Shown here piece after piece: positions 1-45,236 of a stretch of DNA of 64,000 nucleotides. A program made the position numbers and the translations under genes. This stretch comes from Schmidtea polychroa (Eukaryota). The DNA is taken from contig CM097885.1 in assembly GCA_044892525.1 (NCBI GenBank), positions 27,282,001-27,346,000 of the forward strand. Reading direction: 5' to 3'. Under the pieces are notes generated by a model. The model saw only the letters and a program-made list of their open reading frames with translations, was not told where the DNA came from and searched no databases. Within the stretch, counting starts at the first letter, position 1; the number at the start of each line of letters is the position of its first letter.

Positions 1-3000
1 ACACATAATTCATTCCTCGTTGGAATGTAGCTGGGGCTCCTGTTAATCCAAATGGTAACACATTAAACTCATACAGTCCTTTGCCATCCGAGAACGCCGT
101 CTTTCCTCTATCTTCCTCTTTTACTCTAAATTGATTGTACCTTTTGTTTAAATCAATAACAGTGAAATATCGTGCCTCTCCCATTTGATCGAACATTTCT
201 TGAGGTACTGGAATTGGATAAGTGTCTTTCCTCGTAACTTGATTTAGCTTCCTATAATTTACGCAAAATCGTAAGTCTCCATCCTTTTTCTTAACTATCA
301 CTATTGATGAGAAGAATGGTGACGCACTATCTCGAATTATTCCAAATTCCTTCATTGCTGTAATCTGTCTATCACTTTCATCTTGATGAACGTAGGGGAT
401 TCTGTATGGCTTTATTTTTATTGGAGTTTCATCTAATAACGGTATTTCATGCTCAATTACATTGGTTAGACCTAAATCATATTCGTGTTTGGCAAAGATA
501 TCTCGGTATTTTCTCAACAGTTTTGTGAATTCCTTTTTCTGCATCTCATTTAAATCATTGCTTACCACTTCAGGCTCCTTGTACACCTTGACGTTTCTTG
601 GTATTTTACAATTTGTTTCAATAGACATTTTTGATAATTTTCCCAATTTTGTTTTTGGGTGTAACTGAACCGGTTTCTTACTGCTATTCGTTATATGGAC
701 TGGTACTATCTGATTTTCCACTTTAACAACTTCGTCACATATCGGTAAATCATATTTTTCGACTAGCGTTTGATTTGGTTCGAATATAAAATCACCATCA
801 TCCACACTCATGGTATTTGCACAATATACCATCTCCGATTGTGGTGGTATTGTCAATGTCTGATTCACAAACACTTCACCTGCCCTGTGAATTATTTCTC
901 CTGTTTCTCTTGCTATCAAATTACCTGTCTTTAAGTCAAGTGAGACTCCGTCCAGCTGCTCTAATATATCCATACCGATCAGACATCGTACTGGGCTTCC
1001 CTCCATTATGAGCGCATCGTGCGCTATTATTCGATCTCCAATATGGAATATGACGTTAAGTTGTCCAATTATGTTTAATTCATTTTTTGATAATGACCTC
1101 ACTATTTCGTCGGTAGGCTTTATTCGCATTTTCTCCTTCGCGTTTAATACATTTTCCGATATTATTGTGTGACTAGATCCCGAATCGACTAAAGCTTCCA
1201 CTTTATGTTTGTTCATTTGTATAAATATTCGGGGTTGCTTTCCTCTTTTTGTTAATGTCATCAATGAGTAGTTGCATGGTAAGCCTAACATATTTTTTCT
1301 CTCGATCTCTGCGCTAGAAGGCTCGATTCTCTCTCCTACCATTCCTTCACATTGTAATGCGATGTTTTCCACTGGTTTCATCTCTCGTAATCGATCAACT
1401 GGATACACTGGTGCTGGTTGCATAAATGATTTTGGTATACACAATTTTGTAAACGTGTCTACGCTACTCGCATTCAACAGTGGCTCTTGTAAGATTTGAT
1501 AAGTTCTCAACGCTTCTTTATTCATTCCACTTAGTTCTTGATTGTCAACATATAACGGTGCACTATCACCCTCGTTGTCATTGTCATTGTTCTCGTCTCT
1601 TGAAGGGGTAGTACTAGCGTAGCTCACCTTTTTCTTCTTTAATATTCTCGCTTTGAGTATCTCCAACTCCTGATATTGATGATGAGTAATGAAGAATCTA
1701 GCCAATAATGGTATGCAACCAATTACTAGTTTCCACGACCAACCTGTGATCGCGTATAATCTGTGTGTTGACAGGATCTGCGACATTATTACTTTGATTA
1801 CAACACATATTACATAAATTCCAATCAATCCGGCACATGCTTGTCCAATGAACATAAACTTTCCCCAGATCTTTTTCATTGTATTATACGTCGCTTTCTT
1901 GTAATGATATGGAGTTAACAAATACTCGTAATTTACCTTCCCACTTCCGCTTGGGAGAATTGTATCTACCATTTCCATTATTACTCTCTCTTTCTTTGAT
2001 GGAAATAACAAGTTTCTGCGAGCTTCCTCAATGTCTTCGCTCGAGTAAATTCCACTTTGCGACAATTTTTCCAACGACGTAGAATTTACCAGATATTGTA
2101 AATCTGTCAATTCTAAGTTTTTCGGTGTCTTTACTTCTCGATGATCTGGTAATGCAATCCAATATTCTGGTGTTAGTCTGTATAGTGGTGCCAACAATCT
2201 ATTGCATTGTAATACTTTCGGTTTCACGTCCTCTTCTAGTAAGATTCGTGTTACAGGCTCCATAAATCGCAACTTTCCATTTAAATTCACTGGTAACTCG
2301 TTGGTGCATTGGTCATACTTTGTCAGTTTAACTGGTACCGCTTTACATTTATAGCTATATAGTGCTTCACCGAAAATTCTGGCAAACACCCCATTTTCTG
2401 TAATTAACATTGGTGCTACCAAATTAGGATTGGTTATAGCCATTGCCATCCGATTTCGGAGTATTTCTTTGTTGAGATTGCAATCATTTATAATAACTTC
2501 TCGGTACACATTTTCAACAGTATTTTGACCAAAGTGAAATAAATAATCTATTTTGTTATTAAAGTAATTTGTCAACTTGATATCTCCGGCATGTATGTTT
2601 GTTTGGGCCTCTGTAATCATCTTCTGAGATACATATATACCTTTATAATTTGTCTCATAGACGTTTTGTCCACACTTTGTTTTAGTTTCTTTTCTCAGGA
2701 ATCGCATTCCATCTTCCTCCGAGGTTGACATTAACACTGTTGGAGTATCTTTCATCCGTAGAGGTGTGATTCTTGTTGTTGTACTCGTTGCTGGATCCAT
2801 TCTTATTTTCTCAGGCTTTTCCCTGATCTGTTCTCCCGTTATTTCTTTAAAGCTCATTGACTTCAATTGCACTAAATTGCACTTTTTGGTATCGACATCG
2901 TACACCAAGATTGATTCTCCTGTCTGACAGCTAGATTGTTTCATGTTGCAGAATGGATGTGTTTGTAGTTTACCAGTATCATCATCAAATGATCCATCAA

Positions 3001-6000
3001 ATTCTCTTAATTCTGACATGTACTCTTCCACAACCACGGCTTTGTCAATTATAGCATCGTCTACTTTGTATGGCTCTCCTTGGCAATCACCATTCGACTT
3101 TATTATCCCTCGCACGGTTACAGTCTCACGGATTTTATGGTTAAGCTTTGCTTGTAGTTTAATATCTGCATTGATTTTCAACTGTCCTGTTTGAAAGGAT
3201 GCCAAACAATTCTCTGGAATTATTTCTATCGGTCTAGGTATTGATTGCATTTTCACCATCGATGAGTGGCTCCATTTTCCACAATAAAATACAAAAGTAG
3301 TTCGTTTCACTGTACACTCTCTCACCTTTGCTCGTCGAAACCCCGACTCTTGATATACATGATATTTTACTGGATTTGTTACTTTAAATTTTACTGGATA
3401 TGCATCCGAACACTCTGCTACGTTTACCAACGAATATACTCTTCCCATTTCGGTTTGGGAGCAATCGTATGCCACCAATGAATTCGTCGTGTTTATTATT
3501 CCCAATAACATAATAATAGAAATCATCAACCATGGAAATGCGAGTTTTCCCTTTTTCCTCACCGTCTCTGGTTTTGGGCTCCCAGCCTTTTGTATCAACT
3601 TTTCCCATCCGCCATTGTTTGCGATCCACTTAGTCAAATATTTATTCGTCATTTCAGTAGCTTTCTTTATCAATGATTTTGAATTGTCACTTTCCAGACA
3701 ACCATAAATACCAATCTCCAATATTATATAGGCTAGCACTGTCAATATTACATCTCGATCCAACTCGGTTCGTGTTAGGTCCTCAATTACTGCTTCCTCA
3801 CAAAATTCCTTTTCTTCATAATTTCTTTTAATTATCGACGGTAATCTCTTCTTTAATTCCGTTGCCAATCTTTTTACAACTCTTTTCTCCCCCTCCGAAG
3901 TATCATCTTCTGTTTCAGTTTCATCTAACAAGTACAATTCCGTAACTAAACTTTTTAATATTCGCTCAGTCTCGCTTGATTCATCTAAACACTCAGTTTC
4001 GCTTGATTCATCTAAACGCTCAGTTTCGCTTGATTCATCTAAACTCAAAGATTCAATTTCCGCATCATTCTGTTTTTTCCGACACATCGCAATGTCATTT
4101 TTAGTTTCAACAAAGTTCTCTTCACTTTTCATCTCATCTATGCTCGGTAGTATCCTATTATCGGTGCTCATTTCCTCAACATCCCTTGTAACTTCATTTT
4201 CCGATCTCATTTCCTCATTTTCCATTGTTTCTAATCTCTGCAATTCATTAATTTCTCGATCAATTTCTCCTGGGTCATCTACAACTTCAGTTTTAATCTC
4301 CACATTATCATTGTCTTTTTCCTCATACAGAGGCCAAAACGGCACTATTACTGCATCTTTTTCCATTTCCTCACTTTGTTTTGTTGCGTACACATTATTA
4401 ATACAATTTGGGTTACATCCGTAGTTTAACAAATATTCATCATCATATAATTCTCGTCCTTTGAACGTCAACACGATAATTCCTTCATTACCTAATATCT
4501 CCGCTGCTTTTTGTCGTATTTTCTTTGCTTTTACACTCCAATGTTCCTGATAATATTCAATCCTTTGATCCGCAATATTTAACGCTATTATCAAAGATTT
4601 CGCACTATCGTCTGCCGCCTCATAATCATGTCCTAGTTTTCGAATTACCTCTTTTAACTTTGCCTGATAACTTGTCGGTTTATTTGTATACGGCACAATG
4701 CATTCAAACAACCCTTCTTTCATATCTCGATCCATTTCGATGCTCATTATGAAGTCGATACTCGCATTAATTTTATCTCTGTTCCCTGCATACAGGGTAT
4801 CTTGTAAATCTGCTAGCATCTTTCCCCAATTTTGTCTGTCTGAATTCAAAGTATTAACAGCATTAACAACATTTACTTTATTTTTCCAGCCTGGTATCAG
4901 ACCGCAATCTACCAAGTACTCCTCGTCTTCCAGACATCGATTCTCAAATTTTAGTTGCACTTGCCATCCACTGTATTGACGCAGTATTCGCTCCTTTAGC
5001 TCTCTAATTTGTCCGTAGGCATTTACACGGAATTGGCACTTCACATTATCAAGTCCCATCGTTTCCACTATGATATCAGCTATATCCCTTGTTGACCGTA
5101 AAGCTTTGCCAAACTTTTGCATTTGTTTAAGTATCTCATCGTCTCTGTTTCCTTTGAATAACTTTGCACATAAATTTATGGCTCTCTTTAGTTCGCCTTG
5201 GGTTAGTGACATCACACTGAGTTCTGCGATCCATCGTTTCAACTGGGAGTTGTCAGTTTCCATTTTCTCAAGCCATTTTTCAACTCGGGCTAACAGTGCA
5301 GTCGGATTCTCATCTGATGCAATTTTTCGCACTTTCGTAGCAGGTTTTCCCTCACCTTCTGACACGGTTCCAATTATCATATGAGATTCAGTTTCTTCAT
5401 CTGATTCGAATTTAGCCACTAGTTTGTTCAGCTTCTGTCGCATTTCTCGAAATTCCTTTTCCATTTTGTCTTGAAATTCCTCTCTCTGAGCATATGTCAT
5501 GTTGCTGGTGTTTGGCATATCTTCTTGGAATCTGATCGATTTCTTTAAAATAGGTCTGCTGAATCTTTCTGAGTTCCTTGGGCATGATCGCGCCATGTGG
5601 CCGTATCCCTTGCTCGAATGACATTGTATCTGTCCATTTGTATTCACTTTGTCCCTTTGTGGTGAAGGTGACGTTGACGATGATCTTGATCTGGTAAAAC
5701 AGTTTCTGCTAATATGCCCTTTCTTTCCGCATCGATAGCATTCGACATCACTGCTGATCCTTTTGTTATCTGTGAATCTCTTGTTAGGGCTGGGATTCTT
5801 CCCATATTTGAACCAACATTGATTTGAATAGTGTCCAGACTTTTTGCAATGTTCGCATTGAGGATTATTTACCTGTCCATTTGATTGTACATTCATGCCT
5901 GATCTACCTGTTTGAAATCTATTATTTGGTCTCAAAATTGGACTACTGATTTGATTTATTTTCTTTTCATCCCATGGTGCTCTCACAGGCGTAATTGATC

Positions 6001-6619
6001 GCTCACGTCTCTCCACATTAACTCCAAAAGCATCTGATCTTTTTGCACTTTTTAAATTCAACTCTATCTTCATGGCTTTCTTCACGAGCTCATCGAAATT
6101 GGAAAAATCCACATAACATAGGGCCTTTTTGATTTCGGAGTGGACTCCGGTTATAAACTGATCTTCTAACAGCTCTTTAACCTGCTTGGCCATATCTGCT
6201 TGATCTGGTTTGACTTCGAAGGCTTTATCTGCTAAATTGGTCAGATGATAAGCAAACTCACTGACCGATTCATCTGGACCTTGAACTCGATTATAAAATT
6301 TCTGTCGCATGATTCTTTTGATATCTCCACCAACCAGTTTCAGTGCCATTGCATCCTTCAATTTTGTCCAATCATTGCCAACATTTCGTTTGTCGACTTG
6401 CTGCCAGGCTTCTCTTGCCGCACCCTTCAGATAGAGTGGGAATCTCTGAACCATAATGGCTTGTGTCCATCGGTATGCTGAGACGTACATATAATAATCT
6501 CACATGAAATCTGCAAATTCAACAGGGTCTCCTCCATATTGATTGACGGGTAATTTCTGGCAACTTGCGAAATCAATCATCTCTCTATTGAGAGGCATAA
6601 CAGCATTATCATTTGCCAT
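1..6619 (-). CDS. Single-frame polyprotein Gag-Ubl-Ubl-Bcl2-like-Env(gB/chuvirus-type)-PR-RT, >2160 aa, 3'-truncated by window; one in-frame TGA at codon 40 (6500-6502)
   Basis: The ATG at 6619 (MANDNAVMPLNRE) and the RT motif VLPFGLTGAPATFQ at 61-20 share one frame. Hand-translated segments had no stop below 6500. The ORF track lists no closed ORF in this frame, as expected if it is open to the window edge. The next ATG is at 6490. Confidence 0.85.
1680..3541 (-). other. Envelope glycoprotein, chuvirus G / herpes gB-like (class III fusogen type), ~620 aa
   Basis: Hydrophobic signal AFPWLMISIIMLLGII, then LVAYDC, FYCGKWSHSS, GDCQGEPY, GEALYSYKCKAVPV, QCTNELPV, FMEPVTRIL, TM FMFIGQACAGLIGIYVICVVI and GWSWKLVIG. 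These motifs are recognised from chuvirus-like glycoproteins. Confidence 0.85.
3590..3970 (-). other. Bcl-2-family-like domain within the polyprotein
   Basis: BH2-like LTKWIANNGGWEKL (cf. Bcl-2 [14 protein letters not shown]). It is preceded at Bcl-2-like spacing by BH3-like VVKRLATELKKRL and a BH1/helix-5-like VIEDLTRTELDRDVILTVLAYII; the NWGR motif is not conserved. Confidence 0.65.
3965..4046 (-). repeat. 3x 27-nt in-frame tandem repeat encoding LDESSETE(R/C)
   Basis: The unit ctcagtttcgcttgattcatctaaac(a/g) occurs three times in an acidic linker. Confidence 0.9.
4384..4597 (-). other. Ubiquitin-like domain 2 within the polyprotein
   Basis: SLIIALNIADQRIEYYQEHWSVKAKKIRQKAAEILGNEGIIVLTFKGRELYDDEYLLNYGC; the LxFxGxxLxDxxxLxxYG pattern matches the ubiquitin-fold C-terminal half. 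Confidence 0.55.
4865..5077 (-). other. Ubiquitin-like domain 1 within the polyprotein
   Basis: DIIVETMGLDNVKCQFRVNAYGQIRELKERILRQYSGWQVQLKFENRCLEDEEYLVDCGLIPG aligns by eye with ubiquitin IFVKT...IENVKAKI...[21 protein letters not shown]. Confidence 0.65.
5580..6619 (-). other. Gag domain (capsid plus three CCHC zinc knuckles)
   Basis: Capsid-like FYNRVQGPDESVSEFAYHL and LLEDQFITGV; knuckles CEHCKKSGHYSNQC, CYRCGKKGHISRNC and a degenerate CHSSKGYGHMARSC. Confidence 0.9.
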
Positions 6620-6946
6620 TTGGACTTGTTTCTGACTTCTGAGGTTGTATCGGTTCACTTTGAGCTAAACTTCAAACGTTAAACAATAATTTAAAATTAC
6701 TTTTCAACTTCTTTTAAATCTCCCAATAATAGCCTTTTATATCTCTCTCGTTAACACTATTTCCACAAATTTTTCACTACTTTTAATGATTCTCAGGCGA
6801 CTTTCACTCACTTCTGTAGTACTTTTCCAATAATTAACTTTTCCACTAACTTCCAATAATTTTCCTCCGACATTCTATCACGTCGGTACTAATTCTTTTT
6901 ATAATTCCTTTTTCAGTAGCTTTCAATAACTTTCCTCCGACTTTGA

Positions 6947-6964
6947 ATCACGTCGGGCTCACCA
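6947..6964 (-). promoter_or_regulatory. Primer binding site complementary to tRNA-Trp 3' end
   Basis: Minus strand reads TGGTGAGCCCGACGTGAT, 7 nt from the LTR end; one mismatch to the canonical Trp PBS TGGTGACCCCGACGTGAT. Confidence 0.85.
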
Positions 6965-6971
6965 GAATATA

Positions 6972-8030
6972 TGTTGGGTTTTGGATTATTTCAAGTCGGT
7001 TCTCTCTGACTCCTGGTGTTCTTTAAATTAAAACAATGAACGACCCAACGTATATTGAAACAACAGGTTCACAAATTATTATCACTCTACAATTACCAAT
7101 CAAAGTTTTATACGATTCTCCGCTCGGCGTTGATGCTTTGCAAACAAACAATATTCACCTTTTGATCCTTTAGTTCTGTTGACTCTCGTTTTCCTCGGTT
7201 TCTGTTTGGTTTGATCCCTTTTCGCCTTTCCGTATTCTTAATTCTATTTCTTCTTTTCCCTACCTCCCTAATTCGTTTATTAACTTTTCCTATCGTCTGA
7301 TTCTTCGAACCCTAGCTGAGGCAGAATGCCGATTTTCTCTGATTTTCCCTTTGCTTATATACTCCTCGAAATCAGGATGACAAATGGTTATTGCCGAGCC
7401 AATCTTTCGTTTGACATTTTCTCCTACGTGTTTGCTTCGGCTGTCATCCATAATGGTCCAACGAATCCAGATAATTAATGGCCCTACCGGTCTTCCTACG
7501 CGCGCTATCTTCTCCTTACTCTTTTCCCATTAATCATTGTGTCAAACTAATGGGCCCAAATCTTCCTTTTGTTTGCCTTTCTTCTTGTTTACCCAGCTCG
7601 GGTTTCCTTTATCTATCGGGTTCTCCATTGGCTCGGGTTTCCCATTAGCTCGGGTTTTCCATTAGCCAATTAATTAATTAATTAACGTTTTCTGTTTTCA
7701 TACGTTTGAATGTTTTTCGACCCTTCCTAACCCTTTTCTGATAAATCCCTAACCATCATCTTGTTGACCATTAGCTACTCTATACCTGTCCCGTTTTTCC
7801 CATTCGATTTCGATGATTTTTCCATTTATTGATTTTTCTCGGATTTCCGGATTCTCGCCTTTCGTAATTGCCTTTTGCATTTTCTAATACTGTTTCCATC
7901 GCACTTTCCTTTACTATTAATTCTGTGCACGATCCCGCTTTTATTTGCCATTTTTCCTCGCTTACTTTCCAGTTGAATTATTATCCTAAATTTTATTTAA
8001 ATTTTTAATTTTAATTTACAGACCTCAACA
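6972..8030 (-). repeat. 5' LTR (~1059 bp)
   Basis: Bounded by TGTTG (6972) and CAACA (8030) and adjacent to the PBS; composition changes after 8030. The partner LTR is outside the window, so the outer boundary is inferred. Confidence 0.75.
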
Positions 8031-9290
8031 TATTTATTATTAGCTACTTTTCGAGTTGACAGATTTTTCGAATGCGTTGTTTCACTCTTAAATATGTTGG
8101 TGATTGTAATTCGTTGTGTTTATCGTTTTTATTATAAGTGTTTTGTGCTTTACTTTGTATTATTTGATGTATAATCATAAATTTTGATTCGACTTGGTGC
8201 GGTATTTGCGCTATGCTACATATTTTAACAAACTCTCAAATTTTCGACTCGAGCTCAACAATGAGTTAAATCTAAACTAAAAAACCACAGATGATAGATG
8301 AATTATTAGACTATCATTACCCAATGACAAGAAGCATAACCAGTATCATAACCAAGTTACCTGCTTATCATGGAAGTTGATTCTGGTGATTATAATTTCA
8401 ACTTGAATTCCAAAACATTTTAAAAATTTACTAGGATATTTTATGAAATGCATATCTGTTGCATAGTTCTGTTGAAATTCATTAAAATCTTAGTTTTGTG
8501 TACACTAGATTGAACTTGTTCATTGAAATTCGAACCAAGCAAACATTTTCGTCGATTGCTTTTCACTCTCTTTCTCGTTGAATTACTATTGGTATTATTT
8601 TCATTCAACGAATCAATGATTGAATCACTAAAAAACCTTTCATATTACACCTATTCGATTTTATCTTCTCTGTATTCACTAAAGTTTCTGCTTTATGCAT
8701 TGGTATCAAAATCTAAAATATTCATTTAAAATTCCAACTATAGTTTTTAGACGACAAATAAGAAAACTCTGATTTCTAAATTCCAAATATAAAATTTATT
8801 CTTGAAACTCCAAAGAAAATTCCAGAAATTTGATTAAAATTTGGACTGATTAACAAAATAGAAAATTCTGAATCACAAAATTATACACCAAACACCACTG
8901 AGAACCATTTCCTATAATATAACAAAAAAATCAATAATGTTACATTATAGAAACATACATACTTACTCTGATTTCACATTGATGTTCTCATTTAGAGTGC
9001 AGTCAGATACATCTTATACTATAGAAATCTGAAAAGTGGAAGAAAAATTATAAACTGCACACAAACACAAGACATACTAAAAAACACATACAAACTTTTG
9101 ATTCATCGAAATGCACCGCTGAGATACATTTCTATAATAATTCTATTTTAGACAATTTTTGGATAAAAAAAAATCGCTGAAAATTTTTAAAAATATATTT
9201 TTAAAGAGCAGATGAATTTTTTTCAATGTCTTTTCAATCCATATTTGCTTTCCTGAAAGAAGCTCCTCATATTGAGCTCAGAAAAAAAAT

Positions 9291-9797
9291 GGATATTGTT
9301 TGATATTTCCCCCCACTTTATTATTATAATTAGTATTATATTATTGAATTAGAATTGACGATAATAAAATTATTGATCTACCTATGAATGCAAACAATCT
9401 ATTTGAACGAACACGAACTCCGCAAGCAACACTGTTACTTTGCCAAGAATTGGGATTAATTCCAATGACTAAACTGTGCACTGTTTGTGGACAAGCAAAA
9501 GACTTGGTATCATGTACCAAGACCAACTTCCCTTTCCGCTGGCGGTGTAAACGGCCTTGCTGTCTAGAAGTAAGTGTACGTGATGGGACTTTCTTTGAGG
9601 CTTCAAAGCTCGATATAAAGGAAATTCTATTTTTTATTTACTACTGGGCATACGAAGAGTGCTCTTTCAAAAAGATTCGCCGTTTTGCTGCGGATTTGCT
9701 GCGTTAATTGTTTTATTATTTATATATTAATAAAAATTAATATGTTATATTAATTTTTAATTTAATTTTAAGTGGGGGGAAATATCAAACAAGAACC
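9291..9797 (+). mobile_element. Internally deleted Merlin (IS1595/ISXO2-like) DNA transposon
   Basis: ~28-bp TIRs GGATATTGTTTGATATTTCCCCCCACTT / AAGTGGGGGGAAATATCAAACAAGAACC; 8-bp TSD AAAAAAAT on both sides. Confidence 0.85.
9384..9707 (+). pseudogene. N-terminal zinc-ribbon part of a Merlin/ISXO2 transposase; catalytic DDE domain absent
   Basis: CTVC...WRCKRPCC...SVRDGTFFEASKL..EILFFIYYWA, typical of Merlin transposase N-termini; ends after 107 aa. Confidence 0.8.
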
Positions 9798-9820
9798 AAA
9801 AAAATTACAAAAATTATTTT

Positions 9821-10055
9821 TATTAGGATTCTCATCCGTTTTTAAATCACTAAATAATTCCATAAAATTTTATTTAATAAAAGACATCTCAAAAAACTTG
9901 TCTGTTCTTATTTTTGTTATTTAAACAAATTTCAGATTTTCTTAAAATATTTCTTTGATAAATTTCTTCTTTTTAAAATATTTTTCAATAAAAATATTTT
10001 TAAAATTTTTACCAAATTTCTTATTAATCTTTAAGAATCTTTTAACTTCCTCATA
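9821..10055 (-). repeat. 3' LTR (235 bp)
   Basis: Near-identical to 14122-14356 with a few differences; follows the PPT. Confidence 0.9.
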
Positions 10056-13011
10056 TCCCCCTCCTTAAGAAATTTTTTAAGTTTTTCCACGTTTCTTTCA
10101 ATCTTTTTACCATTCTCGTTTCTTAAGATATATCGTCTGTCATGCACTTTCTCGATTACTTTATATGGTCCCTCATATCTGTCCTGGCTTTTGTTGCGTG
10201 TTTCTAATTTTACTAACACATCATCTCCTACGTCAAATTTCCTCCTTTTTTGTTCTTCTTGTTCTTCCTTTACCTGTTTTTCTTTTGACCCGTACCATTT
10301 CTCCCTGCTAATCTTTTTTCCAAAAACTATCTCTGCCGGGCTTATTCCTGTCGTTTTTTGTTTGGTTGCATTTAATGTAAATTCGACTTCTGGTAGTATC
10401 TCTGCCCAATCCGTCTTCCTTCTGTCTCGTAAAGTAGCATTTATCAGCTCTCGTATTGTCCTGAATTGCCTTTCTATCTGTCCATTTGTTTGGTGATGGT
10501 ATGGACTCGAAAAACATAACTTAATATCAAGTTTCTTTGTGAATTCTCTCAACATTCCTGATTCAAACGCCTTCCCACAATCAACTTTTATCTCCTTTGG
10601 GCACCCGAATCTTAAAATCCATTTTTCTAAAATCGATTTTTATTGTTTCTTCGTCTTGTCTTGTTATAGCTGTCAGTACTTGATACTTACTATACTGGTC
10701 TATTATACCCAATATATACTTCTTACGTCCTTTTGTTTCTTGCATTGGTCCACATATATCCACGAATATAATTTCGAACATTTCGGTTGATTCTAATTTT
10801 TTTACTGGTTCCTTCGTTGTAATTGTTATAGCCTTGGTTTTTTGACAAGTCTCACAACTTCGAATAGTTTCCTGAATCTGACTCCACAGGTTTTCCCAAT
10901 ATATCTATCTTTCATATAATCAGCTATCTTCTCGACTCCAGCATGACACAATAGTCTATGTATTTTCTTTATGGTTTCTTGTATCTCGTTTTCAGGTATC
11001 ATCGTTTTCTTTCGTAATTCTTCTTCCAAATTTATTTGTTGATTGGTGCTTCTACCTTCCTCTCTTATCGAGTCTAGTAATCTAGTTTTTATCTTTTCTT
11101 TCTTAGCTTCTTCGTGAGCCATTTGACATTGAACACACGTTTCACATTTAGTTCTGGACACCATGTCTGCATTTTGGTTATTAACACCCTTTCTATATTC
11201 AACGATTATATCCAAATTGCTCAAATAATTGATCCAGGTTTGGAATTGTGAAGTAATTGGCTTCTTGGTTTTCATCATAAACGTGATCGCCTTGTGGTCT
11301 GTCCTTAGTGTGAATCTTCTTCCGTAGAGATAGTGCTTAAAATGAATACAAAAATAGTATACCGCCAATAGTTCCTTCCTTGTAATGCAATATCCTTTTT
11401 CATGGCTCGTCATCGAGTGTGATCCATACGCAATTACTCTCTCCTTTCCATCTTGATCTCTTTGCGAAAGCACTGCTCCAATGGTATCAAAACTGGCATC
11501 AGTATCTAAAATGAACTCCTTTCTCAGATCCGGAAAGCATAGAATCGGTGCCGTTGTGAGTGCTAACTTCATTCCCTCGAATACGTTATTCGTTCCTTCA
11601 GTCCATTCCAGTTTTTTGTTACTCGAACCGCTACATAATTGTTCTAACATCCTTGATTTCTTTGCATACTCACTGATGAATCTTCTATAATAATTACAAA
11701 TGCCTAGAAAGCTTCGATGTTTCTTTACGCAACTTGGCTTCCCAAAGTTTTGTATAGCCTGAATCTTAGAAGGATCGGTTTTTACTCCTTCTTTACTGAT
11801 TATGTGTCCTAAGAATCTGATTTCTTTCTTTATTATTTGACACTTTTCTGGGTTAATCTTTAGTCCTGCTTCATCGATCGCTTTTAATACTTCACTGAGT
11901 ATTGTATAATGTTTTTCTTTACTATTCGAATAAATCAGAATGTCATCCAAATAGACCATTGCTCCATTTATTTTGCCTATTACCTTTGTCATCATTTCCT
12001 GGAACGTACCTGGTGCTGCAGCGATTCCGAACGGCATTCTATTGAAACAGTATTGCCCTTTCTTTGTTGAGAATGCTGTTTTCTCTTGCGATTCTTTGTC
12101 TAACTCCACTTGGTAATATGCATTACCAAGATCGATTGAGCTAAAATAAACGGACCCTCCTAACACATCTAACATCTCGTCTATGGTTGGCATTGGGAAT
12201 GCCTGCCTCTCTGTTACTGCATTCAGCTGTCTGAAATCCAAGCATAGCCTAATATCTTTTTTCTCTTTTTTCCATACGCAGATTAACGGCGTGTTCCATG
12301 GAGAGTTGCATTTCCGTATAATCCCGTTTTCGTACAAATTTTGTATTGCTTCTTCAATTTTTGTTTCCAAATTCAATGGTTGACGATATGGTTTTATGTT
12401 TATCGGTTCACCTCTTGTAATTATCTTATGTTTTACCAAATGCGTGCGACCCACATCCCATTTATCCGCCATAAACACGTTTCCACTGTTCGTTATTATT
12501 TCCTTCAATTTACTATCCTCATCAATCTTTAGATGTTCCAACGCTCGCGTCAATCTTTCTCCATCCTTTATTTGTCTGCCGAATTTTGCTTCAATGTTAC
12601 AAATATAGTTCTTGTCTTTTTCACTAGATTCGATATCTTTTTTTTTGTCAGCCTATATCCAAATGCTTCTTGTAATTCTACTCCTCCAATCACCTCTGGT
12701 GTCACTTTCTCCGCCACAATGAATCTAACTTCCTTAGAAATATCTCCGATAGTTACTTTAACCTTTGTTCTTCCAATTGTCTCTATCGTACTTTCGTTTG
12801 CACATCGTAACTTATCGTCACTTCTAATCAATTGTTGTCCTCGTAACTTGTTAAAACAGTTCACACTCATTAGATTTATTCGTGCTCCGGTGTCTAATAA
12901 ACACTCGAAAATTTCCCCATTCATCATTACTGTTACACTAGGTCTTCCCTGTAGCTTGTTATATACAATTTCTACCTCCTGCCCCGTTTCAATTGTTCCA
13001 ATTCTTTCCAC
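10031..13011 (-). pseudogene. pol (protease, RT, RNase H, integrase) broken by frameshifts
   Basis: ORF fragments contain LLDTGA (PR), YLDDILI (RT), FILDTDAS...TRKELLA (RH), FVDICGP and SSPYHHQTNGQIER...YEGPY (IN). Confidence 0.95.
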
Positions 13012-13118
13012 TTCCTCTTCAAACCTTTCTCTCCTTAGGAACCTGTATACTTTCTCACATACCCTTCCTACATTCTACCACTTTTCTACCCCTTGAGGAT
13101 ATCCCGTCCACTTTTCTG

Positions 13119-14123
13119 TTAGTATATGGCTCCAACCAACTCCTCTACTGGTGGAGCCCTTTTGTTTGGGCACGTCCTACTAAAATTATCTTCATTTGTC
13201 ACTACGCACGATTCCATTTCCTCTTCTTCTTCGATTCCATTAATCCGGCTGTATCTGTTTCCTGTCGGTCTTTGTTTCTCTATTGATTTCTTGTAACTCG
13301 ACTTTGTATAACATTCTTCTGATCTATGACCATTTTTGTTGCATCTTTTACACCGTATTTCTTGACATAACCTTCTTATATGGCCTTCTTTCCAACAACC
13401 AAAACAACTTGGCACTTTTTTATCTGGACAATTCCTACTGATATGTCCGCTTCTGTGACATGTCCAGCACTCTATCTTACTTCTTACTGGACATTCTATT
13501 TTCGTGTGGCCTATTTTGTGGCATAGCCAGCACTCTGGTTCTTCTCGTCGCCTGACTTCTTCTCTTTCATCTTTCTGCTTGTACTGTCCTCTTCTCTGTG
13601 GATCCTGATAGACCACTCTTGCATAACTTTTCAAAGCGTTTATCTGATCTCTCTGTTTGTCCACTTTATCCATCAAAATTAATGTTTCCTTTATCTCCTC
13701 TGTGCTTTTTATCTTCCGCAATATTACTTCTTTGCTGTTATTTTCTCTTTGGTGAATTATTTATTCTCAAACAACCTGTCAACAAGGTCCTCCACTTTTT
13801 TAAAATATGTTTCAATCTCTTCGCCTCTTCTTTTATAATTCAATAGACTTTCCATATCCTTTATTACGTCTCTTTCGTAATCAAATGCCATTCGTAACCT
13901 GGCTTGAAATCCTTCTGCTTTTTAAACCGTTTTCGTATATTTCTCCAATAGATCCTCGTCGATCATGCATGCGGTTAATCTTTCCTGTTCTTTTTTATTG
14001 ATGCCTTTAGCATCGAAATAGATCTCGGATCTTCTGATGAATTTTTTCAATTCATCACCTTGACAGAACACTTTTGGCAATAATCTTTCGGTAATCGCGT
14101 CGGTGTTTACCGCTGCCACCATA
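13119..14123 (-). pseudogene. gag with four to five CCHC knuckles, frameshifted
   Basis: ORF 13119-13721 has CWLCHKIGHTKIEC, CWTCHRSGHISRNC, CFGCWKEGHIRRLC and CKRCNKNGHRSEEC; the N-terminal part lies in ORF 13922-14164. Confidence 0.9.
14109..14121 (-). promoter_or_regulatory. Primer binding site, tRNA-Leu type
   Basis: TGGTGGCAGCGGT directly abuts the 5' LTR. Confidence 0.75.
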
Positions 14124-14356
14124 TTAGGATTCTCATCCGTTTTTAAATCACTAAATAATTCCATAAAATTTTATTTAATAAAACATATCTCAAAAAACTT
14201 GTCTGTTCTTATTTTTGTTATTTAAACAAATTTCAGATTTTCTTAAAATATTTCTTTGATAAATTTTTTCTTTTTAAAATATTTTTCAATAAAAATATTT
14301 TTAAAATTTTTACCAAATTTCTTATTAATCTTTAAGAATCTTTTAACCTCCTCATA
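14122..14356 (-). repeat. 5' LTR (235 bp)
   Basis: Direct repeat of 9821-10055, flanked by the PBS and the TSD ATTTT. Confidence 0.9.
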
Positions 14357-18436: not shown

Positions 18437-21400
18437 CTCTGAGTTTATCCGACAGGATGTTTTGACCCCCTAAGGGTACAGGTCGTAAGGGTACTGGTCG
18501 TAAGGGTATTAGTCGTAAGGGTACTAGTCGTAGGGGTATTGGTAACACTCAACCCCCATCTACCCATTAACCACCTAACAAGTACCAACAACCAAGTCTC
18601 AAACAACTAAATACTAAACACTAACAACCAACAACAACCAGACACTAAGCATTATCAACCTACAACTATATAACAACAATCAGTAAACAACACTGTACCA
18701 ACTACCAAATACAAGAAACCAACAACTTAGTACCAACAATCAACTAACAACACATAAAAATAATAGCAATTAAATAAAAAAAATTATTCTTCATCGCATA
18801 CACTATTTTCTTATCAAAATCTAAAAAGTCAACCAACTACTTACAACCAACAACTATGTACTAACAAATTGATCTTTAAAAGCAAATACTCATCACTTGA
18901 AAAAATTAGATGAAAAATTAATTGAACTCAAGGCACTTTTAAGATATTTGAACTCAAGGCATCAATAACTTGGTAAAAATTGATTAAATTATTGTAAAAA
19001 TTTAAATTATTCAAAATATACTAAATTAAAAAAAATATAATTAATGGACAAGAAAGAACTTTAAATTCTAGTCATTGATCATTCAAGTTAATATGAATCA
19101 ACTAAGATAATAAATTAATAAGAATTTTGAAATAAGATCTAGTAGATAATTGATTTAGATTGAATAAATTAATTGAAATAAAATTAATTTTAATTATTTT
19201 TTTTTAAAAGTAATACATGTACTCAAATTGATTGACTGATTTCTCAATATATTCAAAAAATCTGTATGAATTCATTACAATTATCAAAGTCAGCAATCTA
19301 CAATAAAAATAATTATCATTAAATTTCAAAAGAGACTAGAAAACTAATGATAAAATCTATCAAACCAGTAAATTCATTTAAATGACAATAATTGGTATAT
19401 CCAAGTGAATTCTCTAATAAAATCATCTAAAAAGCATCAAATTTCCCTGAAATATCTATATCTTTTAAGATTAGTATCTTATCGATAAGTACTTGTTAAA
19501 GATCATATATTCACCTCAAACTAACAAGATTCCTTAAAATCCCTTAAATGGCTATATTTCAACCCTTAATTCGTATTATTACAAATATCATCTAAAAAGC
19601 ATCAAATTTCATTGAAATAACTCTATCCTTAAAGATTGATATTTTAATGACAAGTACCCTTAAAAGGTTATATATTTACCTCAGACTAATAAGATTGCTT
19701 AAAATCCCTTAAATGACTATAATTCTAACTTTAATTCGTATTATCACGAATATTTCCCTATAAAACATGTAAAATCATTAACCCTAAATAATTTATAAAA
19801 TCTAATGATAAAACTGGTTATAATTAATTTTTTGTTAATCACTGTACTCGATATTTTAAATAAATATTACTACAATATAACTGACTAGGTCCCATTGAAA
19901 GATTAAATTTATCCATTCAATAAAATATATTTCTTCAAATGATCATTTTTACCAATATTCAACCGATTTAATTACTAATTAAAATCAAGATTCCTTCCAA
20001 TAAAGATCAATTTTATTTAGTCGATGTTTTAAGTCCATATTTCTAAACTTTTGTCATTCTCCGCCTAAATAAAGATAAAAATAAATTAAAGTTGATATCA
20101 ATCCCATTTATCTGTAAAGTTTTCATCGTCAAAACCAAGTAAATCGACATTGTTCTAAAACATAAATCTAAATTCATATACAATGAATTAATCACAACCT
20201 AATAAAACAATATAATTATTATTGATACATAACTGACTAATTGACATTTCCCTTAAAACATTGATATTTTACCAACAGCATACTTAAAAAATCATATATT
20301 CCCATCTTAACCCATCTCTCATTAAATTCAATCGACTATATCCCCCTTACAATGATATATTCCCAACTTATCTGATCTCTCATTAAAATCAATCGACTAT
20401 ATCTCCCTTACAATGATATATTTCCATCTTATCTGATCTCTCATTAAATCTAACCGACTATATCCCCTTAAAAAATCATATATTCCCACCTTATCTGATC
20501 TCTCATTAAATCTAACCGACTATATCCCTTTAAAAATCATATATTCCCATCTTAACCCATCCCTCATTAAATCTCACCGACAATATCCCATCTTATCCGA
20601 TCTCTCAGCAAATATTTCTACCCCCCTCATTAAATTTAACCGACAATATCCCATCTTATCCGATCTCTCAGCAAATAATTCTACCCTTTTAAACATCTAT
20701 CCGATTATATCCCTTATTTTCCCTAAAGATTCCGCCCACTTGAGCCCTTTAATATATATCAATCCTCTTAAAATCCTCAGAGAAATTCAAAAATATGACT
20801 TTTAATTAATTGTTATAGAACCAGACAAATAATAAGAGCCCATTAAAAGATCAAAATTCACTAAATTTTCTACAAATATTTACCATCAAATACTGGAGAT
20901 GATATATATTGATTGATCATAATTCTTCATCGATTCAGCCAATCATTTTCAAGCAATAACAGCAAACTAAATTTCTTTATATCCTACAATAATTATCACG
21001 TAAATTTAAAGTCATTGATAAAGTTGGTTTCTTAGCTTATGTTTTTTAAAGATCATCAATGTGTAAATATTCTTAGAAAATTATTGAAAAATTATTTATT
21101 CAAATATATTACAAAGTTATCATCAGAAATTTATTCTATCACTTAATTATTAACCTAATTGTCAATGAAATTAATTTTTATTTAAAAACTATTCAATAAA
21201 ATACAACTAATTATCAAGAAATTAATTAAATTTATCAATTAAATTTATCACCATTAAAACTTTTAATCAGTCAACATGAAATTCTTAGAAAATTATTCAA
21301 TATCCTCATCAAAATTTATCCTACCACTTGATTATTGTACAAACTTTAATTATTAACCTCATTAAAAATAAATTTTTATTTAAAATTAAAAAACAAGTCA

Positions 21401-21831
21401 ATAAAAATACATTCAATTATCAAGAAATTAATTAAATTTACCTTAGAATTAGCATTAAATTACAGATATTCACAAAAATTACGGAAATTCATGAAAATAA
21501 TGGAAATTCACAAAAATAATAGAAATTCACAAAATTGATAAAAATTCACAAAAAACGATAAAAATTCACAAGAATGATAGAAATTCACAAGAATGATAAA
21601 AATCCACAAGAATAATAGAAATTCACAAAAAAGATAGAAATTTACTTGAATAAAACCATCAACTCTAAAATTTATCAATGAATGCCTTATACAAATTTGC
21701 CTAAATAATCATTCAAATAAAAACATTAAATACCTTTACGACTAATACCCTTGCGACATGTTGAATGTGAGTAGTACCCTTGTGAGCAATACCCATAGGG
21801 GGACAGAATATTTTGTCGGATAAACTCAGAG
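18437..21831. mobile_element. Nested non-autonomous TIR element in left arm (TA-flanked, Tc1/mariner-like)
   Basis: Ends CTCTGAGTTTATCCGACA...TGTCGGATAAACTCAGAG with TATATA on both sides; 15-bp subterminal repeats taagggtactggtcg. Confidence 0.65.
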
Positions 21832-24005
21832 TATATATTAATTAACTCATTTTTCATTGAATCAGTCAAATTATCATAAATTTCGATAAAAATTCTAAAG
21901 TGGTAAGCAATGTAAAGAGAAATATTCTTTAAACTTTGATAAAATTAACAATGAAGGTGGTAAGAATCTTCATTAAAGTGAGGAAATTATTCATTACTCG
22001 ATTCAAATGGGTGAAAATAATTGGTAGAATAATTCATTAATGGATCATTGAATGGGCATAGATAAGAAGAAAGTTGATAAGAATGGAAATATATTAATTG
22101 AATTTATTTAAAATTATTTCATAAAATTCATAAATTTAATAAAAAAAAGAAATATTTGTGGGGAATAATTAATCAAAATCGGCGGAATATAAGTAGAAAA
22201 TCGGGGTGGGGGGTTATAGGCGAATAATTAATGGAAATTCGAGGGGATATAAGTGAATAACTAATGGAGAATCGGGGGGGGGGGGGAATATAGGGATTAA
22301 ATAGTAGAGAATAATAGTGAATATAAGTGAGGAGGATATATAATTTAAGCTAGTTTATTACATAACAAGCCGTGACTAGTCTATTACATAACAACCCGCG
22401 TCTAGTTTATTACATAACAAGCTGTGAATGGTATTTTATTGAAAATTATTGATTAGGTCTTTTTTATAATTTTTGAATAAGTACTTTAATACCTTAATAA
22501 TTTAAATGTTTTGATTTACACTAAATAATTTCTAAATCAATTACCCTTTTCAATCAAAATAAGATCAATTATATACCTTTTTATAAAATTCAGTTAAAAT
22601 TAAATACTTTCCACTAAATTTAAAATATATAAATTTTATAAGTTTTTCAAATTTTCAAATAATGTAAATAAGAAATTAATCTATTACCAGTTACATACTT
22701 ATTGACGGAATTACGTAATAGAAATAAAAAGTAACTTAGGTTATTTTTTTTTCAAAATTATGACTAAGTCCTTTAATATTGTAATAATAGCTATTTATTA
22801 ATAAATTTATTATTTTACGTTAACTATTTCAAAAACAATTATCATATTATTAATTATATTACCCTTTTTAATCAAAATAAGATAACTATTCAAATAGATG
22901 ATTTTTATAAATTACAATAAAAATTAAATACTTTTACACTAAATTTAAAAATATAAATTTTATAAGTAAATGTGAATAAGAAATAAGTGTATTATCAGTT
23001 ATAGACTTTTAAAACTTATTGATTAGATATTAAAAGTTACTTTTTTTTCAAAAAGTCCTCTAATATTGTATTCTATTCATTATTAAATTTACTATTTTAC
23101 ACTAAAATATTTTAATTTAGAAAACAATCATCATAATATTAAATATGATACTTCAATCAAAATAAGTTAATACTCAAATATTTGTCTTATAAAATACAAT
23201 CAAAATTAAATACTTCACAAATTTTAAGTAAAGTTTTTTAAATTCTCAAATAAATGTTAACAAGATATTAATTTAATAATCATTATATACTTTTTAAACT
23301 TATTATTGGAATAAAACAATAGAATGATATTGAAAATATATACAATTTTAAAATATAATTAAAATTAAATTACATACTTTAAAAATTTAGTAAAATGTTG
23401 GTAAAATACCATTCACAGCTTGTTATGCAATAAAATAGTCGCGGGTTGTTATGTAATAGACTAGTCACGGCTTGTTATGTAATAAACTAGCTTAAATTAT
23501 ATATCCTCCTCACTTATATTCACTATTATTCTCTACTATTTAATCCCTATATTCCCCCCCCCCGATTCTCCATTAGTTATTCACTTATATCCCCTCGAAT
23601 TTCCATTAATTATTCGCCTATAACCCCCCACCCCGATTTTCTACTTATATTCCGCCGATTTTGATTAATTATTCCCCACAAATATTTCTTTTTTTTATTA
23701 AATTTATGAATTTTATGAAATAATTTTAAATAAATTCAATTAATATATTTCCATTCTTATCAACTTTCTTCTTATCTATGCCCATTCAATGATCCATTAA
23801 TGAATTATTCTACCAATTATTTTCACCCATTTGAATCGAGTAATGAATAATTTCCTCACTTTAATGAAGATTCTTACCACCTTCATTGTTAATTTTATCA
23901 AAGTTTAAAGAATATTTCTCTTTACATTGCTTACCACTTTAGAATTTTTATCGAAATTTATGATAATTTGACTGATTCAATGAAAAATGAGTTAATTAAT
24001 ATATA

Positions 24006-40220: not shown

Positions 40221-42457
40221 TCCCCTGGCTAGTTTCTTCGCCTTGCAGAGGTTCTTCCTCCTTGGGTTTCAGATAGCGGGCACGGATTTGGGTGCGCAGG
40301 GGTCCACCATCAGCTCGACTACCGCTTGGCCTATCCCGATTACTGATGGTCGAACTGGGACTTGTAGATAGGATGAATAGCAATCAATACAAGTAGACGG
40401 AGGGAGGAGATCCGGCCGAAAGTGATATGGCGGGATAACAGTATCTGCTATCACCGACTTGAAGCCCGATTTCCAAGTGATTACAAAAGGAGTAGCTAAC
40501 TCCTTGGCAGTATCACCTGGTACAAGGCCTGTGATTTCTCCTGTACTAATGCTCTATGCGCTCGGTTCTCGTTGATGAAACTGTCTCGACAGTGCTCAAC
40601 CATACGAAATTGCTGGATTTTATCCTTCATCTAGAAGGGTGAGAACCATGTGCCACCAAGACGGTATATCTTGGCTCGGAGGAATCGATTTTCCTCTAGA
40701 ACGAGCGCTATCTGGGAGATTTTGTCAGCACAAACAAAACAAGGTTTCAACTTTATCGCTGGATTCGTCATCTCTACACTCGAGTTCTTGAAAATTGCAG
40801 GCGGAATGCATTAGTTAGTGATCATTTTAGGAAGTGTATCTGTAAAAAATAGTATTGGTGATTTTAAAATCTTGTCAAAGAGTTTCAGCAATTACTAGGA
40901 ACGAGTAACGTGCGAGGCAATGTAAATTAGTACTTTAAATCCTTTAATTAATATTCAGTGTCCTCGATTAATTAATATTTCAGAGGCTCGATGACGTCGA
41001 TCTACTGCTGGGGAACTTGTTTTGTGAATGAACCAGCAAAAAATCAGCGAGTTCCCTTTCTTTCTCCTTTCCCAAAACCTACTATTTCAATGCATTAAAT
41101 CATAAAAAATAAAAATGTTGTAAGTAAAAGTTAATCAGAATTTAACTGTTAAGGGATATTAAATTATAGTGAGTTTTAGATAAAATTAATAATTATTTAA
41201 GCTGAGTTCCTTTGAATTAAATATGATTACTACAAGGTCGATAGTAGCTTTGAGCGAGTGTATATGCCTCGGAAAAATCCTAGAGGGGGTAGTTCGAACG
41301 ACTGTCCCTCTCCTCTGATTTTGGTAGCTATTCACGAGATTCGAGATTTTTTTCATTTTTGTTTTAATTATTTGACTTTTTTTTGTTGTTACTTTTGTTT
41401 TAATTGGTGTTTTTTAAGTATTTGAAGTTTTCGCTTGCGTTTTCAATGTTATGTGACATCTTGGTTGTGTCATTACTCGTCGGGTTAAGTCAAAAAAGGA
41501 TAAATAAGGTATATATAATTTTAAGATTGGCTTCAAGCCCAATCGGAGAATATGAGACAAAATGAATAACAATTTAACTACGTTCTTTACAAAAAAATCA
41601 AAAAATAACACAACATGTTTGGTTTCAAACTAACACTTTTTTTCATATTAAATCAAGATATGGAATATTACCATAGTTCATCCAAATCAACTTCTCCTCG
41701 ATCATCTGCGAGCCAATCGTCCAAATGAAATGTGTCGTCGAGGATCGGTACCCAAGGATGGTCGTCACATAACTGACCGTTCCTCCGCAGATGATGTTGT
41801 TGCTCAATAAGCTCTCTTCGGCCGCCTGCTTAGCTTTCTTTCTTTTATTCCGCTCCGAACGCGAAATTTGTTTGTCTAATAAATTAATCAAATTAACAAT
41901 TAAGAATGTTGGGACACTTAGTTTAATGAAGAAAGCTGTTAGACTAATTTTATCAATAGTGGGTAGTTGAATAGCAGTAGTTGAATGGTCGTGTATTCGA
42001 ATTTGGTATTGAAAAGAGCTTTTCGAAACGAAGTGTTGTATAAGCATTAAATAGCAATTGGTTTTTTATTAGATATTTGGTATCATGGTAATTGTATAAT
42101 CATTTCAGCTAATCAATAAAGCTAATCAAAATTGTCACTAACAGATAAAACACGCTTGAAGTAGATCATTAATTGTAAATTTTACATTTCACAGACAACT
42201 CCAACAAGTGCAACTAAATACATAATTTATAAATATTCTTTACAGTTTGTATTCAGAAATAAACAGTAAAACCTTCAAGGCATTCATATAACAAATAAAG
42301 GAATTAGCAACTTAGTTTAACCGTAAATTATTTAGTTTCCTCAATTTTGTTACTTTTAATAATATTTTATATCCGTATTTTATAGGGAAAATGTTCAATT
42401 ATGTAATATGAAGGTAATATTAAAATGAAAAATCGCAAATAAATTTTCATAACAACA

Positions 42458-42673
42458 ATGAACAATTGTAAAACAGACGAAGAAAATATTTATGAAGATT
42501 TAATAAGCGAAGATTATTTATTGAATCAATTATACAATTCTCTTGAACATTTAGGTCCTAATTTTGATGGTTCTGACATTGAAGAAATAATAAATTGGAA
42601 TGAAATTTTATTCTATTCTGATTGGTCAATAAATGAAAGCGTAAAAATAGAAACTAAAGACAATAGAAAATAA
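42458..42673 (+). CDS. Small acidic hypothetical protein (71 aa), left-arm copy
   Basis: ATG-initiated and open in both arms (mirror 59476-59691, one aa difference); no recognisable domain. Confidence 0.3.
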   Translation: MNNCKTDEENIYEDLISEDYLLNQLYNSLEHLGPNFDGSDIEEIINWNEILFYSDWSINESVKIETKDNRK

Positions 42674-43713
42674 AAATGAAAATTATATTTCGAAAATTAT
42701 ACGATATAAAATTTGTTTAAATATAATTTATTTTGTTTCGTTATTGTAGTTTTAATATCTTCAAAATTTGAATTCATTAAATGGAGAATGAAATATAGCG
42801 GACCCCATTTTAACATTTCTATAGCTTCATTGGCAAATTTTCACATTTTTAACAATAAATTTTCCTTTGAATTTCGGAAACAAAGTTTATTCCTAAATGC
42901 AGTTTTTACCAAAATGCACTAATTTCAACATGCAATTTCAATTTAAATTCAAAACATGTAGATAGACCCTAAGTAAACACGGAAAAATAATCGAACATAA
43001 CATTTTAATCGAGTAACTAAACTAGAGAAAAAAGAATTACCAAATGCAGAAACTATAAATGAAATAAACACAAAATTAATAAATAATACGAAGGCAATGA
43101 AAAATAATAAGAGTTGGGAAAAAAATATTTATTAAAATAATAGAAAATATTAATCACAAAATGAAGGAAATAGAAATTATATTAAAAAAAACAATCAAAT
43201 TGAAGATAATTCTAGAAGAAAAATCCATCATAAAAATTAAATAAGATATAAATATTTTGAAATAAATAAAAGAATAAAAATAAACCAATAAAAATTGTGA
43301 TGTAATTATAATGGGATATTTGATTTCCCTAACCTTTACCCATTATTATGTAATGCTTGCATGTGTGATTTATTATTTTTGATTGTCTGGGTCCTCAAAT
43401 TATGTCACTGATTATTATTTCCCAAAAAGTTATTGCTGATTGTGTTGGTGTCGACACATCGGGTACTATAAATAGTACCACAATTTCTTAAATAAAGTTT
43501 TTTGGAATTTATCAATTATTCTTATTCTTAACAAAAATGAAAAAAATTAAATATAATAGAAATTGATTAAAAGTATGTGATTTTGTTTTAATGCTCTAAT
43601 GCATATTAATACTCTAAGAATGATATTACAAATCAATAAGAACTCAACGGGCATTATGTGTCAATTATCATTTGTATCTTGGTTTACGCAGGAAACAGCA
43701 CGACGAGATAAAA

Positions 43714-44547
43714 TTACGCTTTCTTATTTGATAAAATATTCATTTTAATCAGAATATCTTTTAACTGATCAATACGATTATTTCGATTAATAAGCATATT
43801 ATTATAATTGATCAGTTCACAGTTGATTGATTTCCGCACATATTGCCATGATTGAGATTCGGATAAAGCTGATAGGTTGAGGCCAAAAGCACCGATATTG
43901 GAAATCGAGCAGTAAATTGTTGTTTCGATAACAAAATATAATTTCTCCAAAACTTTTCTTGCTAATTTCAATTCTTCATTTCCTTTTGATGTTGCTTTGG
44001 AAAGTAGAAATTCAATTTCCCGACTCAGGCTGTCAAACTCATTAAAATTCAGTGAAATATAACTGCAATCGTTTGATATAAATTCATCCAGTTCAGCAAT
44101 CACATTTTCCATGACGTTGTTAAACTGGTATTTATTTTCTATATTAATGTTGTTGTAGCGAACTGCGCTGTTGATTTCATTAAGGATTCCTTGATGTTTG
44201 AAAAATAATTTTTCGAGTACTTCAATATTATTCAAACAAACGTTGTATCCCTGCAGTATTGTATGTAAATTTCTTCCCATGAAATTTTCCACAGCCGGCA
44301 ATAATTTGTTTTCATAAATTGAAATGATATCAACAATTGATATAATTTCATCCGTTTCTTTATCCAAACAAAAAACGTTGCTGAAAGTCATCTTGTCCAA
44401 TGGGCAATCAGAAGATCTCATCGTTACCTCAGCTATGCAATTGCCACAAAATTGATGGAATTTGTAACATTTCCCAAACCCAAATTTACAACTGTCAAAT
44501 AATTCGTAACAAATTACACAAAAATTTTCATCATTTTCATTATTCAT
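43714..44547 (-). CDS. RING-finger protein (277 aa), intronless, left-arm copy
   Basis: CVIC-x13-CYKFHQFCGNC-x10-CPLD, a RING-HC-like pattern with Asp as last ligand, followed by a helical region. Confidence 0.8.
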   Translation of the reverse strand: MNNENDENFCVICYELFDSCKFGFGKCYKFHQFCGNCIAEVTMRSSDCPLDKMTFSNVFCLDKETDEIISIVDIISIYENKLLPAVENFMGRNLHTILQGYNVCLNNIEVLEKLFFKHQGILNEINSAVRYNNINIENKYQFNNVMENVIAELDEFISNDCSYISLNFNEFDSLSREIEFLLSKATSKGNEELKLARKVLEKLYFVIETTIYCSISNIGAFGLNLSALSESQSWQYVRKSINCELINYNNMLINRNNRIDQLKDILIKMNILSNKKA

Positions 44548-44913
44548 TTTATCTATTTCTATATTTGATTTCTGTTTTTATTTCAAGTTATTTTTATTTT
44601 ACTAATAGTTTATTATGTCAAATAGTAAGGAAAGTTATATTTATTATATTTTAAATTTATTTCATTGGATACAAAAATATAAAAATGAAAAAATTGTAGA
44701 TAATTCAAAACTATGTATAAAAACAATTAAATGATAATTTAAGCCTTTTGCTGCGAAAAATATATTTAATACAAATGAAAAAATTTTCGATTATAAGATA
44801 GTCCTTTTCAATTCAACTCTCCCCTGGTGTATTATTTAGATTTAATAATTTATGAGAATAAGATTATTCTGAGTACTCTTGAAGATGTACAAAAAGCATT
44901 ATTCAATCTATAT

Positions 44914-45128
44914 CAGTGTTTCTCAAACTATGGGTCGCGACCCAAAAATGGGTCGCGAAAGAATTTTTGGTGGGTCGCGATGACTAGAATAACTAGAGTT
45001 AAATAGAGTTATTCTCATTAAATAAACATTTATTTTAAAATTAATCTTTGTCATGTGGGTCGCAATAAAATTATTGGCATGAAATGTCAAAAATTTGGGT
45101 CGTGATCAAAAAAGTTTGAGAACCACTG
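44914..45128. mobile_element. hAT MITE (215 bp)
   Basis: TIRs CAGTGTTTCTCAAACT / AGTTTGAGAACCACTG; 8-bp TSD ATCTATAT; gggtcgcg subterminal motifs. Confidence 0.9.
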
Positions 45129-45236
45129 ATCTATATGGAGATGGAGTCAAAATGAGATATGGCTTGATTTCTAATTTATTACGTAAAATGAATTAATGTT
45201 TTTATAGTGATAATAAGAAATTTAAATACTTTATAA

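Follow-up and report, generated by a model that had tools for sequence, protein, structure and literature searches.

Two tandem modules of a helical bundle and a ubiquitin-like domain in the Gag region of a Burro-like retrotransposon of Schmidtea polychroa

The window analysed here is a 64,000-nucleotide stretch of the Schmidtea polychroa genome (assembly GCA_044892525.1, contig CM097885.1, positions 27,282,001 to 27,346,000 of the forward strand), at the start of which lies part of a Burro-like Gypsy element on the minus strand. Its reading frame of 2166 aa is uninterrupted between 6499 and the start of the window, and Pfam matches occur in it in the order Gag, zinc knuckles, ubiquitin (residues 477-535), Bcl-2 (weak), Monjiviricetes fusion glycoprotein, aspartic protease (PR) and reverse transcriptase (RT). 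An earlier note, made from the letters of the window, had placed two ubiquitin-like (Ubl) domains in tandem downstream of the knuckles, had claimed an old internal duplication, and had suggested comparing folds and element copies. We found that the Gag part of the frame holds, twice, a unit of about 155 aa made of a four-helix bundle and a Ubl domain. The features of the element are as follows.

6972..8030, minus strand: probable 5' long terminal repeat (LTR), 1059 bp, with a 5-bp terminal inverted repeat TG...CA (termini read; loose ends of other copies' contigs at 6968-6982)
6947..6964, minus strand: 18-mer resembling a primer-binding site (PBS), starting TGG, 7 nt past the LTR (sequence)
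6500..6619, minus strand: gag start, ATG at 6619, in-frame stop at 6502-6500 (translation)
6185..6442, minus strand: Gag capsid region, Retrotrans_gag (PF03732, E 3e-8)
5582..5857, minus strand: three CCHC zinc knuckles, the third degenerate in the window copy (PF00098, E 2e-7)
5099..5320, minus strand: predicted four-helix bundle of module 1 (single-sequence model, pLDDT 67-81; profile 15.2 bits, shuffle maximum 9.8)
4856..5074, minus strand: Ubl domain of module 1, Ubl1 (PF00240, E 4.3e-5 to 0.0045; PDB Ubl matches; profile)
4616..4843, minus strand: predicted four-helix bundle of module 2 (AlphaFold2 (AF2) helices 2-20, 23-35, 40-53 and 61-77; 17.3 bits, shuffle maximum 4.0)
4376..4597, minus strand: Ubl domain of module 2, Ubl2 (AF2 beta-grasp; Foldseek and VIA matches to SUMO, ISG15 and ubiquitin)
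3971..4363, minus strand: acidic low-complexity linker with short tandem repeats (49 D/E against 16 K/R in residues 713-862)
3575..3970, minus strand: Bcl-2-like domain, BH2 kept, BH1 NWGR degenerate (PF00452, E 0.0075; 6-sequence profile matches Bcl-xL, E 1e-4)
3485..3550, minus strand: hydrophobic segment immediately preceding the Env ectodomain (hydropathy peak at residues 984-1005; relative L002 has one too)
1760..3478, minus strand: in-frame Env, a Monjiviricetes-type fusion glycoprotein with a C-terminal membrane anchor (PF24664, E 7e-92; membrane segment at residues 1547-1579)
947..1240, minus strand: PR (PF13975, E 9e-8)
560..928, minus strand: conserved insert of about 120 aa between PR and RT (28% identical to L002)
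2..295, minus strand: RT, running past the window edge (PF00078, E 2e-13)

Both segments are very probably integral ubiquitin-fold domains without a di-Gly end. For Ubl2, the AF2 model of unit 2 is a beta-grasp (pTM 0.73), and the structure matches to this model (Foldseek, VIA) include SUMO, ISG15 and ubiquitin. For Ubl1, the fold is supported from sequence, by PF00240 (at its best E value, below the gathering cutoff) and by homology to the modelled unit 2. A 17-row profile matches ISG15 and ubiquitin (E 1e-8 to 2e-7), and Ubl inserts of viral polyproteins (bovine viral diarrhoea virus, BVDV) are also among the fold matches. In the ESM Atlas, unit 2 gave only ubiquitin leads below 0.9, and the bundle nothing usable; because the listed fold matches of the unit-2 model are all Ubls, they barely probe its bundle. 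The two ubiquitin-fold segments of the earlier note are thus confirmed, by the modelled structure for Ubl2 and by Pfam, PDB and profile matches for Ubl1. That note overlooked both the conserved four-helix bundle to which each Ubl is joined and the existing description of a Ubl at the corresponding position in Burro elements.

The duplication is visible with profiles only. A profile built solely from relatives finds both units in the window open reading frame (ORF; E 5e-17 and 3e-26), and with it each window bundle alone outscores all 500 of its own shuffles. Aligned directly as a pair, the two units score only marginally (56, with 5 of 2000 shuffles as high), and a BLASTP self-comparison of the window ORF gave no match between them. 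The old internal duplication is borne out by the relatives-only profile, but the shared word that had been taken as its trace (LFKGNRD / LYAGNRD) was rejected as a marker: the first form lies between helices 3 and 4 and the second between helices 1 and 2, GNRD is missing from all 12 relatives, and 42% of shuffles contain a repeated 4-mer. Conserved Gly72, Gly143, Pro146 and Asn150, along with the pTM of unit 2, are consistent with a fixed bundle-Ubl arrangement, and the two parts may form one rigid unit.

Relatives carry the module at the same place, between the knuckles and the Bcl-2-like domain. It is present twice in L002, L003, L008, L011, P0003 and P0004 (where the first copy is partial), and a single copy is detectable in L001/P0008 and in P0007. 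L002 is an intact ORF of 3184 aa with the same domain order through integrase, yet its identity to the window element is only 20-31% in the module, 41% in Env and 52% in RT, which marks the arrangement as old. Among copies of the element itself, third codon positions hold 13 of the 18 differences in 4364-5320 (p 9e-4), a count that draws on the best-supported 40 of 258 differing places; unit 2 contributes 10 of 12. This excess indicates purifying selection on the modules, and the doubled module is real and apparently under selection. The conservation that the earlier note suggested examining is thus found both in distant relatives and among near copies. A full HMMER scan gave eight matches; P0009 was dropped as a relative, being a spurious helicase-associated repeat. 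Word-based protein searches returned nothing with a single sequence and, with an alignment, only five near-copies of one metagenome family, and a search of viral contigs found no relative.

The window copy is itself broken near its start, given the in-frame stop at 6502-6500, and runs for about 2200 aa from the Gag start to RT. We infer its LTR end at 8030, since the 3' LTR lies outside the window. The PBS-like 18-mer may resemble the 3' end of tRNA-Trp; no tRNA gene was found in the window. The core word of this site occurs twice in the leader (6878 and 6948; window 6870-6965), where the contigs of other copies vary in repeats. The family is abundant, with 7961 contigs of one sequencing run aligning over 4 kb and all four runs examined covering parts of it; RNA-labelled runs contain the element stretch as contigs only. 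The flanks are AT-rich. In L002 the polyprotein extends about 500 aa beyond the integrase core (8419-9954), ending in a strong hydrophobic segment, and directly after its stop lies a 607-aa frame (9958-11778) that has no Pfam match and, by eye only, resembles a DEDD exonuclease. In L001 an in-frame stop (3058-3060) separates the Bcl-2 domain from the Env signal segment; from one copy, decay and programmed readthrough are indistinguishable. L002 and the window, unlike L001, have no stop there.

Elsewhere in the window, a separate small Gypsy element (9821-14356) with 235-bp LTRs that are 98% identical and a frameshifted gag-pol lies 1.8 kb upstream of the Burro-like LTR. Long degenerate tandem-repeat blocks at 14700-38000 form large inverted pairs with mirrored GC skew (for example, 19419-22438 and 26419-23402, 99.6%). 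A 4.5-kb inverted repeat, 97% identical, occupies 40981-45495 and 56660-61186, and each arm holds an intronless frame of about 287 aa with an N-terminal RING finger (44577-43717, minus strand; 57578-58438, plus strand; Pfam E 0.002).

The surfaces of the Ubl domains constrain what the modules could do. The earlier note had raised recruitment of the endosomal sorting complexes required for transport (ESCRT) or of the proteasome, and in this reading the Ubls would mimic ubiquitin and serve as a built-in late domain. PTAP, PPxY and YPxL are absent from five of five Gag regions checked, the element encodes an Env, ubiquitin fused to Gag can replace a late domain (PMC2958808), and single-module relatives retain Val at the Ile44 position. 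However, Gag-fused ubiquitin is described as driving budding only with L8/I44 (PMC2958808). With the Ile44 equivalent fixed through alignment to ubiquilin and the patch scored at that position, Ubl1 has Lys there, Ubl2 has Thr, and 4 of 14 units have a hydrophobic residue. Because budding needs L8/I44 and the position is mostly non-hydrophobic here, mimicry toward ESCRT or the proteasome is unlikely, and the earlier proposal is weakened. GG follows the Ubl in none of the 14 units, in line with the expectation in that note that conjugation is unlikely. As far as the sequences indicate, the function can probably be narrowed to roles without conjugation, with classical ubiquitin mimicry unlikely.

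Ubiquitin inserts in pestivirus polyproteins act as a processing signal. The Ubl could similarly be a signal for host deubiquitinases, or be conjugated, or the module could be only a folding spacer; the BVDV inserts among the fold matches and the fast divergence of the module fit such roles. Nonetheless, we regard them as improbable, given that all 14 units lack di-Gly, that the element has its own protease, and that a conserved surface loop and the third-position bias suggest a specific partner. In 11 of the 14 units, three or four of the residues in this loop, at ubiquitin positions 51-54 (D-D-D-E), are acidic.

The neighbouring Bcl-2-like domain, of which the earlier note had thought the Ubls possible partners, is real by its profile match to Bcl-xL, and it raises the question of an anti-death cassette: a protease-released Ubl-Ubl-Bcl-2 protein, anchored at the endoplasmic reticulum (ER) or mitochondria, that would recruit host ubiquitin, SUMO or chaperone machinery and blunt apoptosis. 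A Bcl-2-like domain follows the module in the window, L001, L002, L003, L007 and L008, and Burro1's IAP region reportedly shields stem cells against death by caspases (cited in PMC13465017). On the other hand, the module and Bcl-2 are kept apart by 130 aa of acidic linker, the 949-aa ORF of P0007 has the module without a Pfam Bcl-2 match, and the BH1 groove motif is degenerate, so that we think such a cassette unlikely. The hydrophobic segment at 3485..3550 is likely to be both a tail anchor of the Bcl-2-like domain and an internal signal peptide of Env.

It is also conceivable, if doubtful, that the bundle is the working part and the Ubl its rigid partner, the bundle being a captured domain like the TFIIS N-terminal domain and the LEDGF IBD (TND), with host transcription-elongation motifs or the integrase of the element itself as its binding partner. 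In a fuller version, which we consider slightly more doubtful, the element would have captured a bundle of this type, fused it to a Ubl and doubled it, and after cleavage the product would link integrase or Gag to elongation factors and steer integration or expression. The TND family, including the LEDGF IBD, is described as having five helices in a HEAT-pair fold (PMC9987994), whereas four are predicted in the window bundle, and the TND likeness score of the latter is not above that of unrelated bundles. No TND match was found for 11 bundles against Pfam or for two profiles, both shallow, against PDB. If the bundle is truly a TND, the element would encode its own counterpart of the LEDGF tether that lentiviruses borrow.

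Taken together, we consider it probable that the modules are a non-conjugated docking scaffold that does not use the Ile44 patch. The explanation we favour, tentatively and by analogy, is that the acidic loop of this scaffold binds the element's own nucleocapsid during assembly rather than mimicking ubiquitin; the nucleocapsid as the partner is, taken by itself, a slightly more tentative proposal. The hydrophobic segment after Bcl-2 would anchor the Gag precursor in the ER and feed Env into the lumen, which would keep the modules cytosolic, with the basic knuckles on one side and the membrane on the other. The knuckle region is strongly basic (23 K/R against 6 D/E in residues 200-320), and the loop may bind it or a Gag-RNA complex, organising assembly at the membrane until the protease releases the module. 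The analogy is to coronavirus nsp3, whose Ubl1 binds the nucleocapsid protein and whose Ubl1 and Ubl2, like the window Ubls, are integral, non-conjugated domains of a membrane-anchored polyprotein (PMC8769549). In nsp3 the Ubls have no fused bundle of this kind, and the likeness is taken as a functional analogy only.

Several points weigh against this model. The described nsp3 Ubl1-N interface is a hydrophobic helix and a polar strand, not simply charge (PMC8769549). The acidic loop is lost in 3 of the 14 units (the first units of L002, L003 and L008), and the Ubl domains are near neutral overall (12 acidic and 12 basic residues in one, 13 and 10 in the other), so that acidity is confined to the loop. 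Modelling of both units from the single sequence with AF2 was confident for the first bundle only and gave no confident model of Ubl1. The selection count has the narrow base given above, and in unit 1 alone third positions hold 3 of 6 differences. Finally, the tree of the 14 units is poorly resolved with weak support, and thus does not decide between one and several duplications.

Among known proteins, the comparison is with Type II (integral) Ubls such as ubiquilin, BAG6 and UHRF1, and with ISG15 and SUMO as the nearest folds, at 10-23% identity to the window Ubls; as these are all tied, no donor can be named. The window Ubls differ from these in an Ile44 patch that is mostly lost, and from the di-Ubl proteins ISG15 and FAT10 in that a helical bundle lies between the two Ubls. 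The closest system is that of the Burro/GYPSM1 elements, giant Gypsy elements of dugesiid planarians described as having Gag, three knuckles, a Ubi2/SUMO-like motif before BCL-2, an in-frame Env, PR, a dUTPase-like domain and RT (PMC6431247). The window element shares this core: one polyprotein with Gag, three CCHC knuckles, Ubl and BCL-2 in order, a mononegavirus-like Env in frame between gag and pol (as in L002), PR, an insert and RT, at high copy number. In the place of the Burro dUTPase-like domain lies the conserved insert, for which searches found no dUTPase match. The element also differs in size (a complete relative, L002, of 3184 aa and a window LTR of about 1.06 kb, compared with Burro ORFs of 4873-5140 aa in elements of >30 kb), and MATH, BIR and ankyrin gave no Pfam match in the window ORF up to RT (E<=1) or in the complete L002 ORF (E<=0.5). 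Lacking both the giant size and this cargo, it is Burro-like rather than one of Burro1-4, as compared by description.

A Ubl at this position is thus known already; what is new in detail is that the module of bundle and Ubl is doubled, that it has lost the Ile44 patch, and that the family is compact. As far as its accessible text goes, the Burro review (PMC6431247) names one Ubi/SUMO-like motif, where the window element has the doubled module, and the accessible parts of PMC8532177 and PMC11410931 add no further domain detail. Our literature searches turned up neither a doubled bundle-Ubl module nor a retrotransposon Gag with a TND-like domain, although the primary Burro papers (Grohme 2018, Jurka 2007, Lee 2026) may hold one. 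An unannotated part of a Burro-type polyprotein is here resolved into a defined module, able to fold and retained by distant families as one copy or two, and a soluble domain of 160 aa can now be tested directly. The presence of the Ubl-Bcl-2-Env core in compact elements without MATH, BIR or ankyrin suggests that this core, shared with the giant Burro elements, belongs to the basic kit of the lineage.
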